Part shown: in pieces, positions 20,156 through 24,440 of the stretch
Position numbering within the stretch: the stretch's first letter is position 1
How the letters are laid out: each line of letters opens with the position of its first letter
NCBI GenBank assembly: GCA_039586365.1
Contig: JBDHKN010000059.1
Coordinates: 1-30,864, forward strand
DNA from: Gemmatimonadota bacterium
GTDB lineage: Bacteria > Gemmatimonadota > Gemmatimonadetes > Gemmatimonadales > GWC2-71-9
Reading direction: 5' to 3'
Length of the DNA stretch: 30,864 nt
Translations under genes and position numbers: made by a program
The notes under the pieces: model-generated
What the model was told of the DNA's origin: nothing
The model's input: the letters and a program-made list of their open reading frames with translations, nothing else
The model's database searches: none

Positions 20156-22729
20156 ATGATCGAGTTACGCACCCTCGGCCACCTCGAACTAACTGCCGAT
20201 GACGGCAGTGATGCGGCTACGCTCGTAGCCCAACCAAAGCGCTTTGCCCTGCTGTGCTACCTGGCAATCCCCAAGCCCGGCACCCTACACCGTCGTGACA
20301 CGCTGCTCGGCCTGTTCTGGCCCGAGGTCGATCACGAACACGCCCGCATGGACCTGCGCCAGGCGCTCCACTTCATACGGCATGTGCTGGGAGAAGACGC
20401 GTTGCTGCGGTGCGGCGACCAAGAGGTGGGAGTCAATCCGGATCGCGTGTGGTGTGATGCCGCCGAGTTTCAGCGAGCAGTGGACGAGGGAAGGTGGTCG
20501 GACGCGGTCGGGTTGTATCGCGGTGAGTTCCTGAAGGGGTTCCACGTTTCTGGTGATCCGGAGTTCGAGCGGTGGCTCGATCGGGAGCGGTCGCGCCTGG
20601 TACGCGCATACGCTGGGGCACTGGAACGGGCAGTCGACTCGGCGGTGGCCGGTGGTGACGTGCGTGGAGCCGTGGAATACTGTGAGCGTCTGGTCGAGCA
20701 CGATCGCTACAACTCGCGCTACGCGATGAAGCTGATGGAAGCGTTGGTGGCGGCGGGCGATCCCGCGAATGCGCTATTGTACGCGGAGCGGCATAGGGAG
20801 TTGTTGCGGGCAGAACTCGACATTGCACCGCCGCCGGAGCTAGATGCACTCACAAAGCGGATCCGGCTACAGCCCGAGACCCTGCGGCCTTTGGAAGGAC
20901 CGCAGAGTGAAGAGGATATGTTGCCGCAGTTGGGAGCGCCGGCTAGGCCGGGTGGTGGTGTGAGCCCGACCAGCACTACGCTCCCAAGTGCGGCAAAGAG
21001 CGGTTGGAAGGTGGCGGCGGTAACTGGTGCGTTTGCGGCAGTGATCGCTGTGATGGTGATCGTCATGCTCATCTCTCGCGAGGGCGGAGTGTCGCTCGAT
21101 CCCGAGCGTGTAGTAGTGGCAGTGTTCCGCAACGAGACGGGCGATGTGTCACTCGATTTGGTGGGTAGACTGGCCGGTCACTGGATCACGCAGGGCATTC
21201 AGCAGACGGGCACCGTGCAGGTCATGCCGTGGGAGACCGCGTTGCGATCGTGGCTCCACGTACAAGCAGAAGCCGACTCGGGTCGAGTGCTTGATCCTGT
21301 GCGCGCTTTGGCAGAGGAGACAGGTGCGGGGACCGTGATCTCGGGTGCGTATTACCTCGAGGGTGACACCATCCAGATCCAGGCTGAGGTGAACGATGCG
21401 ACGCAGGGGAGGCTCATCGGTTCGGTCGATCCGGTACGCGGGTCACGGGGCTACCCGAGCGAGCTTGTCGGACAGCTGCAGCAGCGTCTGATGAGTCTTC
21501 TGGCGATGAGGTATGACGAGCGACTGGCTGCGCCTTTTGATCTGGCTGGCAATCCTCCCACCTTCGAGGCATACCGAGTTTTCGACCAAGGTATGGAGAG
21601 GTTTCTCCGAAACGCACAACGAGATGCTCAGCCGTATTTCCGTCGCGCGATCGAGTTGGATTCGACTTATGCTGAGGCACTCCTGTTTCTTGCGGCCACG
21701 CACTGGAACCGAATGGAATATCCGCAGGCGGACACAGTGCTAAGATTGATGGACAGTATCGGTGAAAAGCTCTCGCCATACTACCGTTCATACGGGGAGG
21801 GCCTCCAGGCCGCCGTGGACGGCGATCTGGAGCGGGCACTGTCCGCTATCCGCCACGCTGCGGAAATGGCTCCGGGATCGAGGGCCTGGTATACCTACGG
21901 TGTCGTCTGCGGATGGACCAACCGGCCCCACGAGGCTGTCCGAGCGTTCCACGCCCTCGATCCGGAACGTGGGCCCATGCGAGGGTGGATTGGATACTGG
22001 TGGGAGTTGAGCAAAGTGCACCTCATGCTGGCTGAGTACGAGCAAGTCCATGAGGTGGCACAGCGAATCCGCCGCCTTCATCCTGATCAAGATGCGCGGG
22101 CTTTACTCTTGGAGGCCTTGGCTGCGGCCGGGCTGGGCCGTACGGAGGACCTCAGCAACGCATTGCAGCAGCTGATGAGTGAACCTGCGCCGGCCGGAGT
22201 GCGCACTGCGTTGCTTGACGCCACTCGAATTCTCCAGGCGATTGGGATGACGGACGCGGCACGAGATGTCGGTCGCCGAGCGGTTGCCTGGCTTGAGTCC
22301 AGACCACTCGACGAAATGGACACGGCTGCCCATCGATATGAGTACGGGTGGGCGTTGTACTTCACTGGGCGACATCGTGAAGCGCAAGAAATCTTCGATG
22401 GGCTCGTGGACGAGTATCGTGAATGGCCTTATGACCTGCGCCATCGAGGAGCGCGCGGATTCATTGCCGCCATCCGTGGTGATTCAGCACAAGCCCAGGA
22501 GGATTTGGAGTGGTTCGCAAACGTAGAGGGGCCCTATCTGCAGGGGGTTCACAAAGCCTATGGTGCCGTGGTCGCCGGTGCACTCGGCCAACGTGAAGCT
22601 GCGGTGATGCTGCTCCGGCAGGGGTACGCCGAGGGGACCGCGCACGTTTGGAACGACATGGTAGATCCGCAGTTTGAGCCGCTGCGCGGCTACGAGCCGT
22701 TTGAGGAATGGTTGCGGCCGAAGGGATAG
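20156..22729 (+). CDS. Membrane-anchored SARP/BTAD transcriptional regulator with TolB-like and TPR sensor domains
   Basis: N-terminal 'LRTLG..QPKRFALLCYLA..RRDTLLGLFWPE' winged HTH, BTAD 'DAAEF..LYRGEFL..FERWLDRER', TM helix 'VAAVTGAFAAVIAVMVIVMLI', 'VVVAVFRNETGD' domain and a TPR-like helical C-terminus. Confidence 0.85.
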   Translation: MIELRTLGHLELTADDGSDAATLVAQPKRFALLCYLAIPKPGTLHRRDTLLGLFWPEVDHEHARMDLRQALHFIRHVLGEDALLRCGDQEVGVNPDRVWCDAAEFQRAVDEGRWSDAVGLYRGEFLKGFHVSGDPEFERWLDRERSRLVRAYAGALERAVDSAVAGGDVRGAVEYCERLVEHDRYNSRYAMKLMEALVAAGDPANALLYAERHRELLRAELDIAPPPELDALTKRIRLQPETLRPLEGPQSEEDMLPQLGAPARPGGGVSPTSTTLPSAAKSGWKVAAVTGAFAAVIAVMVIVMLISREGGVSLDPERVVVAVFRNETGDVSLDLVGRLAGHWITQGIQQTGTVQVMPWETALRSWLHVQAEADSGRVLDPVRALAEETGAGTVISGAYYLEGDTIQIQAEVNDATQGRLIGSVDPVRGSRGYPSELVGQLQQRLMSLLAMRYDERLAAPFDLAGNPPTFEAYRVFDQGMERFLRNAQRDAQPYFRRAIELDSTYAEALLFLAATHWNRMEYPQADTVLRLMDSIGEKLSPYYRSYGEGLQAAVDGDLERALSAIRHAAEMAPGSRAWYTYGVVCGWTNRPHEAVRAFHALDPERGPMRGWIGYWWELSKVHLMLAEYEQVHEVAQRIRRLHPDQDARALLLEALAAAGLGRTEDLSNALQQLMSEPAPAGVRTALLDATRILQAIGMTDAARDVGRRAVAWLESRPLDEMDTAAHRYEYGWALYFTGRHREAQEIFDGLVDEYREWPYDLRHRGARGFIAAIRGDSAQAQEDLEWFANVEGPYLQGVHKAYGAVVAGALGQREAAVMLLRQGYAEGTAHVWNDMVDPQFEPLRGYEPFEEWLRPKG

Positions 22730-22839
22730 GATTGACGACTGACGAAGTGAAATGCGCTGGAGGGATGACGGACGAGTCCGGGGCATTGAAGAGACAGCAA
22801 AACGAAGAGCCGAGGCACGTCGCGCGTCCTCAGCTCTTG

Positions 22840-22873
22840 TGACGTAGCGAACAGGCTACGCGGCATCGCAGAC
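22840..22873. repeat. Imperfect inverted copy of the 5' half of the adjacent tRNA-like gene
   Basis: TGACGTAGCGAACAGGCTACGCGGCATCGCAGAC aligns with the tRNA 5' half TGGCGTGGCGAAACTGGCAAACGCGACAGCATCGCAGAC in the opposite orientation. Confidence 0.75.
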
Positions 22874-22918
22874 TCTGTCAACTTAGAACACTACATCCTA
22901 CCGTCAATGGCGCGGCGG

Positions 22919-23002
22919 TGCTGGCGGTGAGACTCGAACTCACAAGGGCTTTCGCCCAACGGTCTGCGATGCTGTCGCGTTTGCCAGTTTCGCCACGCCA
23001 GC
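22919..23002 (-). tRNA. tRNA-Leu-type (class II) body with aberrant anticodon arm (anticodon CGC); atypical or pseudo tRNA
   Basis: Minus strand: GCTGGCG TG GCG AAACTGGCAAA CGC G ACAGC ATCGCAG ACCGT TGGGCGAAAGCCCTT GTGAG TTCGAGT CTCAC CGCCAGC A (84 nt). Acceptor, D, variable and T stems are perfect. The anticodon stem has two A.C mismatches, and the gene is followed by CCG rather than CCA. Confidence 0.8.
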
Positions 23003-23326
23003 ACCTGAATCGGCGGCGAACCAAGGCAAGCTCTGACGCCAAGACGCGGGACATCGCACACGTTGCCGAGCCGCAGAGACATGCTACAGTTTGGGCTATC
23101 CCGGCGCGTAACCGTGTCATTGCATCGTGGCTCTGATTCGCGCGCCGCCAGTGCCTAGTGCCGACGGGTTCGCCCCTTGATGCACTTTGCACCCATTGGT
23201 ACGTCCGCGCCGTTAGCAGCGGGGCGTCCCCCGGTCTGCCTAAACGGCACCTCTACCATTGTCCCCGTGGCCGCGAATCGGCCTCGGCAGCCGCTGGTGA
23301 CCGGCTCCCATTCCGGCCTTTTTGAC

Positions 23327-23353
23327 GTAAGTTGCTATTTTATAATGATTTAC
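23327..23353. other. 27-bp AT-rich quasi-palindromic site B (TAAGTTGYTAT type)
   Basis: GTAAGTTGCTATTTTATAATGATTTAC has complementary GTAA/TTAC ends and is related to the site at 19757-19783. Confidence 0.5.
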
Positions 23354-23373
23354 ATCGACCGAACGACGTCTCG

Positions 23374-23604
23374 GATCGTCGATTTGAAGCTTCAAAACGC
23401 CGCTTGCCGACTTCGAATCTTCGATTCGGAGCTTCGAGACTCGCATTCGAAGATTCACGACCGCGATTCGAAGCTTCAGATCGTCGGTTCGGAGCTTCAA
23501 ATCGTCGATTCGAAGCTTTAGATCGTCGATTCGGAGCTTCGAATCCTCGATTCAGAGCTTTGAGACGTCGATTTCGAGCTTCAAGACATCGCTTCGAAGC
23601 TTCA
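23374..23604 (+). repeat. 21-bp tandem array, 11 units, consensus RATCGTCGATTCGRAGCTTCR
   Basis: Exact 21-bp phasing from 23374, for example GATCGTCGGTTCGGAGCTTCA, AATCGTCGATTCGAAGCTTTA and GATCGTCGATTCGGAGCTTCG. Confidence 0.92.
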
Positions 23605-23858
23605 AAATCATGCCAAAACGGCGGGAAGCGTCCGCCACCAAAGGTCCGCAACGGCCGAGCGGAACAGTTCCCAACACACCACAAACCTCAGAAAGAGGAT
23701 AGCACCATGCCGTTCAATATGTTTCCCACAGCAGGGCGATTTCCCATGCCGCGTAGCCATACATGGGAACCAACCTGCAGAACCGCCCGAAAACCCCGTC
23801 CTGACGCGGGAAAGCCCACTTCACCACCCACCCAATTCCGTTACCCATCCCTTACTCG

Positions 23859-24440
23859 TCAATCGTCAATCGTCACTCCCGCCCCTGCTTCAAACGCCTG
23901 CCGATTGAGGCTCAATAGCTTTTCAGGAATACGATCCTGCATGACACTGTCCCACACATCTGCGGGGATGTCGAGGAACTCCGCCAGCGTGCCCAACAAC
24001 ACCACATTCGCCGCGCGGTGGTTGCCCAGCTCGATGGCCCTCTCGGTGGCTTTGACCGCGATAACCTTGTACCCCTTCTCCTTCAGGAAATCGATGGCGT
24101 GCTCGGGGTACGGCCGGTCGTCGGCAGTGCGGAGTGGTTTCACCTCGTGGTCGTTTACGATGACCGTACCGCCGGGCTTCACGAAGTGGGCGTACCGCAG
24201 GGCTTCGAGTTTCTCGAGCGCCACCAGGTAGTCCACCGCACCGAGCGGAGTCATCGGTGAATGCACCCGATCGCCAAAGCGCACGTGGCTGAATACCGCT
24301 CCACCCCGTTGTGCCACTCCGTGGAACTCTCCCTGCTTGACATCCTTGCCGGCGGCCAGCGCGGCGAGAGCCAGTAGCTCGCTGGCGAGCACCGCTCCCT
24401 GTCCTCCGACGCCGGCAATCAGCACGTTGGTTACCGCCAT
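23859..24440 (-). CDS. iorB: Indolepyruvate:ferredoxin oxidoreductase beta subunit
   Basis: ATG 24440 with a GGAGG RBS. Motifs 'LIAGVGGQG', 'EFHGVAQRGGAVFSHVR', 'LEKLEALRY' and 'AANVVLLG'. Confidence 0.92.
   Translation of the reverse strand: MAVTNVLIAGVGGQGAVLASELLALAALAAGKDVKQGEFHGVAQRGGAVFSHVRFGDRVHSPMTPLGAVDYLVALEKLEALRYAHFVKPGGTVIVNDHEVKPLRTADDRPYPEHAIDFLKEKGYKVIAVKATERAIELGNHRAANVVLLGTLAEFLDIPADVWDSVMQDRIPEKLLSLNRQAFEAGAGVTIDD

Follow-up and report, generated by a model that had tools for sequence, protein, structure and literature searches.

The window analysed here, a stretch of 30,864 nucleotides from contig JBDHKN010000059.1 of a Gemmatimonadota bacterium (assembly GCA_039586365.1), carries on its minus strand a type II tRNA gene with a leucine body and an alanine anticodon, followed by a segment complementary to the 5' half of this tRNA (Table 1). 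The pair is flanked by genes of metabolism and by a convergent BTAD/TPR gene. An ORF that overlaps the tRNA (22878-23192) had no Pfam match, and no cas genes were found among the scanned ORFs of the window. The Rfam scan of the window gave no match at gathering score and, with relaxed filters, the tRNA as the sole credible match within 22600-23900.

Table 1. Observed and predicted features of the tRNA/antisense locus in the window
Feature	Position	Strand	Basis
Type II tRNA, leucine body, Ala anticodon CGC (22968-22966)	22919..23002	-	ARAGORN; Rfam RF00005 39.9 bits; sequence
Conserved upstream motif GCR-N7-GRTWMY, predicted activator site replacing a consensus -35	23108..23123	-	
Predicted -10 box TAGCAT of the tRNA precursor	23081..23086	-	Motif alignment
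Leader of ~73 nt, imperfect anticodon-arm complement at 23061-23051	23003..23075	-	
Predicted sigma-70 promoter of the antisense RNA	22880..22907	-	TTG-N19-21-[TCG]A...T in 94/99 homologues, 4.8 expected
Boxes of the predicted antisense promoter	-35 TTGACG 22907-22902; 16 nt; -10 TAAGTT 22885-22880	-	
Antisense part of the predicted small RNA	22840..22875	-	Pairing and fold
GC-rich hairpin with short U-rich tail, predicted intrinsic terminator	22799..22836	-	Homologue counts, fold

The identity set of bacterial tRNA-Leu, here A73, A15-U48, G18G19, A20a and a 4-bp variable arm, was found in full in this tRNA; CCA is not encoded. The identity element of tRNA-Ala is G3:U70, in place of which this molecule has U3-A70, and CGC stands where a tRNA-Leu would have a leucine anticodon. 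The acceptor and T stems are laid out as 7/5 and not as the 8/4 or 9/3 reportedly found in allo-tRNAs. Leucine identity in E. coli and Aquifex resides in A73, the core and the way in which the variable arm is oriented, and not in the anticodon (accessible text of PMC2377443 and PMC9976931), so by analogy the odd tRNA would be charged with leucine. As the source genome has 42 called tRNAs, among them four tRNA-Leu and an ordinary tRNA-Ala(CGC) on C125, the odd gene is an extra one.

Only three of the five anticodon-stem pairs are formed in the window tRNA, the breaks being A29.C41 and C31.A39. The antisense segment matches both C31 and A39, whereas A29 is mismatched to its stem partner and to the antisense alike and therefore looks like a recent change. 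Stems as poor as this occur in just 3 of the 103 scored family members described below, the other 100 having four or five pairs. The window copy is thus a degenerate member, and since its cloverleaf is predicted at 6.6 kcal/mol over the lowest-energy fold, compared with a median of 1.1 in the family, it may be weak or inactive.

The initial annotation described the downstream segment as an anti-tRNA, and its measurements were borne out. On the minus strand, 22873-22840 forms 32 pairs with 23000-22962 (-50.8 kcal/mol), at the claimed offset of some 45 nt (the distance from the discriminator A73 at 22919 to 22873); the perfect 11-bp block runs from G30 to C40 (22972-22962) and covers the entire anticodon loop. 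The opposite-strand counterpart has 28 pairs and -42.3 kcal/mol. The two substitutions in the distal block are indeed G.U wobbles, as read from the sequence; the middle hairpin of the small RNA itself also explains both. The lowest-energy fold of 22800-23040 on the minus strand, computed as the annotation had proposed, is the long hairpin (z -3.94), equalled by 0 of 200 shuffles, and the half-tRNA against the trailer had z scores of -4.1 and -4.7 with 30 dinucleotide shuffles. Binding of the segment to its own tRNA is predicted at -52.7; the strongest value for any of the 41 other tRNAs called in the source genome is -37.6.

Positions 22836-22988 were present without change in run X1, which may be the source sample of the window sequence, and run X3, which belongs to a separate study, contains 22893-23043 with a single difference. 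Among public runs with the sequence none was listed as RNA, which carries no information on expression. An assembly error is unlikely because the sequence recurs in both runs with no more than one difference, and the pairing of tRNA and antisense is confirmed as a real feature of this DNA. In addition, an exact 13-nt inverted copy of 22854-22866 lies at 23746-23758 on the plus strand, probably by chance; the 11-nt antisense core occurs nine times in the source genome and the 13-nt core once.

Distribution of the family and its anticodons

The main search pattern combined a leucine-type D arm with C36-A37, so that C36-A37, A15 and A20a are forced in its matches. It matched in 33 of 401 genomes of the phylum, with up to six copies per genome, and the reversed pattern gave 0 matches; the distribution is patchy and multi-copy. 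A DNA search had matches in 28 of 61 related genomes, a tally that counts ordinary tRNA-Leu and short matches and takes in the unpublished genome G021, on which no claim rests. In a scan of named genomes, 22 of 64 parts gave 120 loci; 74 of these are from Gemmatimonadota, to which we take the Longimicrobiales and 'HR33' records to belong. After deduplication there were 167 matches: 108 from the phylum, 45 from other phyla, 10 viral, 3 leucine tRNAs and 1 excluded. Owing to their short flanks, seven went unscored, which leaves 103 scored phylum, 43 other-phylum and 10 viral matches.

The family anticodons are of alanine, valine, aspartate, glutamate, glycine or threonine type. Among the 103 scored members they are CGC (34), CAC (23), GGC (14), GAC (10), GTC (7), AGC (5), GCC (4), CTC (4), TGC (1) and TTC (1). 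A73 is found in 101/103 and U48 in 97/99, G3:U70 in 0/103; C33 replaces U33 in 28/103, and CCA is encoded in 1/103. Because the main pattern forces C36, we also searched without it: every non-leucine match of an anticodon-free search in five genomes has C36, and a search for other bases at position 36 in 151 genomes yielded just three members with GGU and one ordinary tRNA-Leu. The determinants of valine identity are A35, C36 and A73 (PMC9976931, accessible text); as these are present in the CAC and GAC members, such tRNAs might be charged with valine, which, if true, makes them harmless.

The layout of tRNA and antisense was also seen in records assigned to Planctomycetota (L099, L185), Zixibacteria (L166), Deltaproteobacteria (L095), Gammaproteobacteria (L113) and an unclassified bacterium (L197), some of which may be due to mis-binning. 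In L185, a Thermoguttaceae record, the antisense covers the variable arm besides the anticodon arm. A plasmid collection gave no match, and the viral contigs gave 11 pattern matches, with an antisense in 0 of the 10 parsed. As a separate observation, L039-L049 and some 40 loci from outside Gemmatimonadota (among L080-L198), in phages and many phyla, have leucine-body tRNAs whose anticodons are of Gly, Asp, Glu, Ala or Val type and beside which the antisense is absent; some of them have no 7-bp acceptor stem.

Matching of antisense and anticodon arm

An antisense was scored as matching at z <= -3 and a helix of at least 10. This threshold was passed by 99 of the 103 scored phylum matches, 4 of the 43 from other phyla and 0 of the 10 viral ones, and beside ordinary tRNA-Leu genes there were 0 of 20. 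The four phylum failures comprise two with an antisense visible by eye (L065, L076), one with the antisense upstream (L171) and one with an atypical body and none (L150); of the five unscored phylum matches four have an antisense, and the contig of the fifth (L109) ends too soon. With visible, upstream and short-contig cases judged by eye, the antisense is thus present at 106/108 phylum tRNAs. The complement expected by the initial annotation at homologous loci is therefore kept, and compensatory change is seen between nearest relatives, as follows.

With its own antisense an anticodon arm forms a duplex of -28.5 on average; for other arms the mean is -15.6. Among the 103 candidates the own duplex ranks first in 84 cases and third or better in 101. 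The arm of the window tRNA, taken alone, ranks its own antisense only second (-21.5 vs -21.7). In 49 disjoint nearest pairs, a choice that lessens but does not eliminate shared ancestry, 209 of the 243 differing arm positions are still paired, 189 of them via a change in the antisense; with the partners swapped, 22 of the 243 are paired. The anticodon differs in 32 of the 49 pairs and is matched by the antisense in all 32. Bases 34-37, i.e. the anticodon and base 37, are Watson-Crick paired in 99/99, against 73/990 in shuffles, and G.U pairs took 0 of 34 chances at position 34 and 0 of 64 at 35, compared with 17 of 39 at position 32. The segment described as an anti-tRNA thus co-evolves with the tRNA arm.

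Two members with a GGU anticodon (L251, L252) have an antisense that still fits GGC, and a third (L249) is re-matched in full, which suggests that the anticodon of the tRNA changes before the antisense does. The earlier proposal that the aberrant loop predates its copy or co-evolved with it is consistent with these three loci, and it is co-evolution that they point to. Two trivial origins of the complement were considered and rejected: a neutral inverted duplication is ruled out by the compensation counts, and an attachment-site duplication because the copy is inverted and fits the 5' half of the tRNA.

Predicted promoters, terminators and leader

The antisense is probably a separate small RNA gene, as judged from its promoter motif, its terminator-like hairpin and its arrangement in homologues. 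The promoter spacer is 17 nt in 74 homologues, and in 94/99 the -10 box ends 12-16 nt ahead of the base that pairs with position 34, at a tRNA-to-antisense distance ranging from 7 to 57 nt; a looser form of the motif was found behind 10 of 51 control matches. A terminator-like hairpin is present in 99/99, with at least four T in the next 10 nt in 78/99, counts that carry no shuffle control. It should be noted that a strict consensus scan for promoters and terminators misses both elements in the window copy. The predicted small RNA of ~78 nt would consist of a 5' tail (22873-22863 in the window) facing the anticodon arm, a middle hairpin (22861-22842) in which the D arm and the 5' strand of the acceptor are mirrored as well, and the terminator, such a middle hairpin being present in 96/99. 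Its binding to the mature cloverleaf has a predicted net median of -23.5 kcal/mol (-23.8 in the window).

The initial annotation had read the segment as a trailer acting in cis only, a view that the promoter motif, fixed in its distance to the pairing while the distance to the tRNA varies, does not support. Furthermore, genome G440 has three modules in which a matching antisense lies upstream of the tRNA promoter, separated from it by its own terminator-like hairpin, and therefore has no cis-trailer role there. Tandem modules of reversed order, antisense then tRNA, were seen in L171:1-972 and L195, with a repeated stretch between them that resembles the end of a protein-coding gene; this suggests tandem duplication or integration as a mode of spread.

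An intact tRNA is missing from the 190 nt ahead of ten antisense-like genes: those of L116, L057, L120, L021, L082, L038 and L025, the second copy in L037, the reverse copy in L010 and G000:C39:13193-13295. Not counted are L050 and L076, where a tRNA or degenerate tRNA precedes, and the partial L067. The last of the ten, on the plus strand, is a second antisense-type gene of the source genome G000; it targets a CAC loop (profile E 5e-10) and has a weak -35 and no tRNA ahead of it. A genome-wide search for partners of such orphan genes covered G000 alone, and in this genome, which is 86% complete, a partner tRNA was not found.

For the tRNA precursor, the conserved upstream motif lies 21 nt ahead of the -10-like box, which suggests an activator-dependent promoter. 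The composite G[GA]TNNN-N21-.A...T was found in 47/97 homologues, against 4.2 expected from shuffles, with N20 spacing in 21, and TA...T at -100..-72 in 37/97, with 17 expected. A scan of the source genome for the upstream motif returned 45 sites, mostly intragenic, and named no regulator. The anticodon-arm complement in the leader is weak: the cognate arm is best in 12/101 and in the top tenth in 37/101, and the window leader has a z score of -0.8. The last three bases of the leader (GGU) pair with A73-C74-C75 and lengthen the acceptor stem, -1:73, -2:74 and -3:75 being paired in 89, 93 and 88 of 103.

No evident terminator was found in the interval between tRNA and antisense. In models of the read-through precursor the trapped fold is preferred, with a median advantage of 13.9 kcal/mol; the cloverleaf would be lost, and the anticodon loop is fully paired in 89/97, in agreement with the earlier suggestion of two mutually exclusive folds. 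As read-through precursors prefer the trapped fold, a cis switch may act as a second layer of control.

The surroundings of the family are variable. The next ORF at 79 loci is convergent in 49, on the same strand in 27 and absent in 3; the 75 nearest downstream ORFs scanned belong to unrelated families, with no fixed neighbours. Nine of the 75, a figure with no background rate behind it, have domains of type II/VII toxin-antitoxin kind (Phd, ParE, RelE, HicB, PIN twice, HepT, NTP_transf_2 and HTH_37), and one is a transposase. The oxidoreductase gene neighbouring the window module is present in 4 of 5 same-genus genomes; in their fetched flanks the module is absent after this gene, and no clean empty site was seen.

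Interpretation and relation to known systems

Taken together, the locus is probably an all-RNA toxin-antitoxin module, in which a tRNA miscoding with leucine is silenced by a small RNA directed against its anticodon; the suggestion of an RNA toxin and antidote in the initial annotation fits this prediction. The tRNA precursor would be transcribed from the promoter without a consensus -35, probably requiring an activator, and the leader and the GGU/ACC extension of the stem would slow its folding or processing. Read-through into the antisense would add a second safety by trapping the precursor in cis. The mature tRNA would be charged by LeuRS, which in the bacteria tested does not read the anticodon, and would place leucine at frequent codons for Ala, Val, Asp, Glu, Gly or Thr, with toxic effect; for the window tRNA these would be GCG codons. 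GCG, GCC, GTG and GTC, the alanine and valine codons that the family would address most often, number 27-36 per 1000 in the source genome. The small RNA, from its near-consensus promoter, would begin pairing with its 5' tail at the anticodon loop and unzip the anticodon arm, so that decoding is blocked or the tRNA decays.

We also lean, with less assurance, towards seeing these loci as selfish or defensive modules that unite a translation-competent tRNA toxin, which would rewrite the genetic code by putting leucine at GNN codons, a dedicated anti-anticodon RNA, an insulating diversity of arms and an activator possibly responsive to stress or phage. Diversification of anticodon and arm would keep several modules per genome insulated from each other, and the activator would turn the toxin on, possibly under stress or phage infection.

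Alternatively, the mistranslation may be controlled and useful, in which case the tRNA would be a recoder induced by stress and tolerated by the host, or of benefit to it, with the small RNA as its off-switch and not as an antidote against something lethal. The conserved activator-like motif, suggestive of induction, the fairly conservative nature of replacing Ala or Val by Leu, and the position of the modules among ordinary chromosomal genes agree with this; we nevertheless consider it unlikely, as the patchy spread, the several copies with different anticodons per genome, the lack of fixed neighbours and the antisense genes that outlive their tRNAs suit addiction better. We give still less credence to a tRNA-like regulator that does not decode, comparable to the C4 RNA of phage P1 and the CI RNA of P4, which are tRNA-shaped antisense regulators with targets in the leader of the downstream operon that they control. 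Here the complements on both sides of the tRNA could serve as attenuator targets, and the frequent C33 and the rarity of encoded CCA would be in line with such a role; yet the downstream ORFs are mostly convergent and of unrelated families, the 7-nt loop and the stem stay intact, and C36 is kept in all non-leucine matches of the anticodon-free search, the search for other bases adding just the three GGU members and one tRNA-Leu. Hardly more can be said for a pure cis switch, i.e. a single precursor with two exclusive folds in which the trailer gates maturation of the tRNA: the strongly favoured trapped fold with its paired loop and the missing terminator between tRNA and antisense speak for it, against which stand the antisense promoter motif in 94/99, the upstream antisense genes of G440 and the stand-alone antisense genes. 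The reverse polarity, with the small RNA as a toxin sequestering an ordinary host tRNA and the odd tRNA as a decoy antidote, is very improbable, for although the 5' tail fits an anticodon loop, the ordinary tRNA-Ala(CGC) is bound by the window segment no better than average (-28.5 vs a mean of -29.6) and the small RNA is kept where the odd tRNA is absent.

Returning to the toxin-antitoxin reading, the module is predicted from its layout to work like a type I or type VIII system. The type I systems hok/sok and tisB/istR, for example, have a small antisense RNA that ends in a terminator and pairs through its 5' tail with a toxin transcript whose leader is self-inhibiting. The present module is similar in its short antisense with tail and predicted terminator and in the self-inhibiting leader proposed for its tRNA; it differs in that no toxin protein is involved, the target being the anticodon arm of a tRNA and not the mRNA of a small toxin protein (ORFs of at least 70 aa considered), and in that the antisense does not come from the strand opposite the toxin gene. 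Of the type VIII systems, creTA has an antitoxin, CreA, that acts via CRISPR Cascade and a toxin, CreT, that sequesters a rare tRNA. SdsR and RyeA lie on opposite strands, whereas the window genes share one strand and do not overlap. According to the accessible text of PMC10767807, creTA and SdsR-RyeA are the only validated RNA-RNA systems in TADB 3.0; in both the partners are RNAs of one small locus, as proposed here, and creTA may have both RNAs on one strand like the window module. Growth inhibition by the RNA toxin is predicted here from its leucine identity, its non-leucine anticodon and the asymmetry of the orphan genes. A separately encoded antitoxin RNA in the same locus is found here at the level of sequence only, and neither Rfam nor strand layout revealed similarity to the creTA or SdsR-RyeA RNAs. 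In contrast to type VIII, the window antisense is a same-strand inverted copy aimed at an anticodon arm, and the proposed toxin is a full tRNA that miscodes.

Natural missense allo-tRNAs arrest and kill E. coli and occur close to toxin-antitoxin genes in metagenomes of soil and sediment (Mukai et al. 2017, PMC5389517, accessible part). They put serine at leucine codons, whereas the window family has a 7/5 leucine body with non-leucine anticodons; the words 'antisense' and 'complementary' are absent from the main text of that paper, and its supplement, with the allo-tRNA loci, may bear on the comparison. The tRNA-ProX of Streptomyces and Kitasatospora, which go with ProRSx, form a family of dual-identity tRNAs; they carry several anticodons, mistranslate and lower the viability of E. 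coli (PMC11415595, accessible part); unlike the window family they have a proline body and a dedicated synthetase, and in the accessible part of this review an antisense partner of tRNA-ProX is unmentioned, with 0 occurrences of 'antisense' and 'antitoxin'. Sequestration of a tRNA by base pairing with another RNA is described for the E. coli tRNA-LysT/tRNA-ArgU heterodimer (bioRxiv 10.64898/2026.09.02.748885, accessible part), which consists of two housekeeping tRNAs, whereas the window antisense is a dedicated gene co-evolving with a tRNA predicted to miscode.

In the literature, covered at abstract level and with few subscription papers, we found no tRNA toxin paired with an anti-anticodon RNA, and a pair of miscoding tRNA toxin and antisense antidote would be categorically new. 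If true, toxins would gain a new mechanism, in which a tRNA miscodes across the proteome, and regulation a new kind of target, in that the anticodon arm of a tRNA is silenced by an antisense gene of its own. This would also offer a testable answer to the question why genomes retain 'wrong-anticodon' tRNAs expected to harm. Annotation pipelines count the genes of this family as ordinary alanine or valine tRNAs. The approximately 100 natural tRNA/anti-tRNA pairs with different arms could possibly serve as compact codon-reassignment switches for laboratory strains.

Two further observations concern the sequence upstream of the tRNA promoter. Tandem 21-nt repeats at 23340-23606 translate on both strands into a 7-residue repeat, and the plus-strand ORF 23332-24231 had no Pfam match. 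Between these repeats and the promoter lies a GC-rich stretch (23187-23345), single-copy in the source genome and with no Rfam match, variants of which occur in other metagenome contigs; it is possibly another structured or mobile element.
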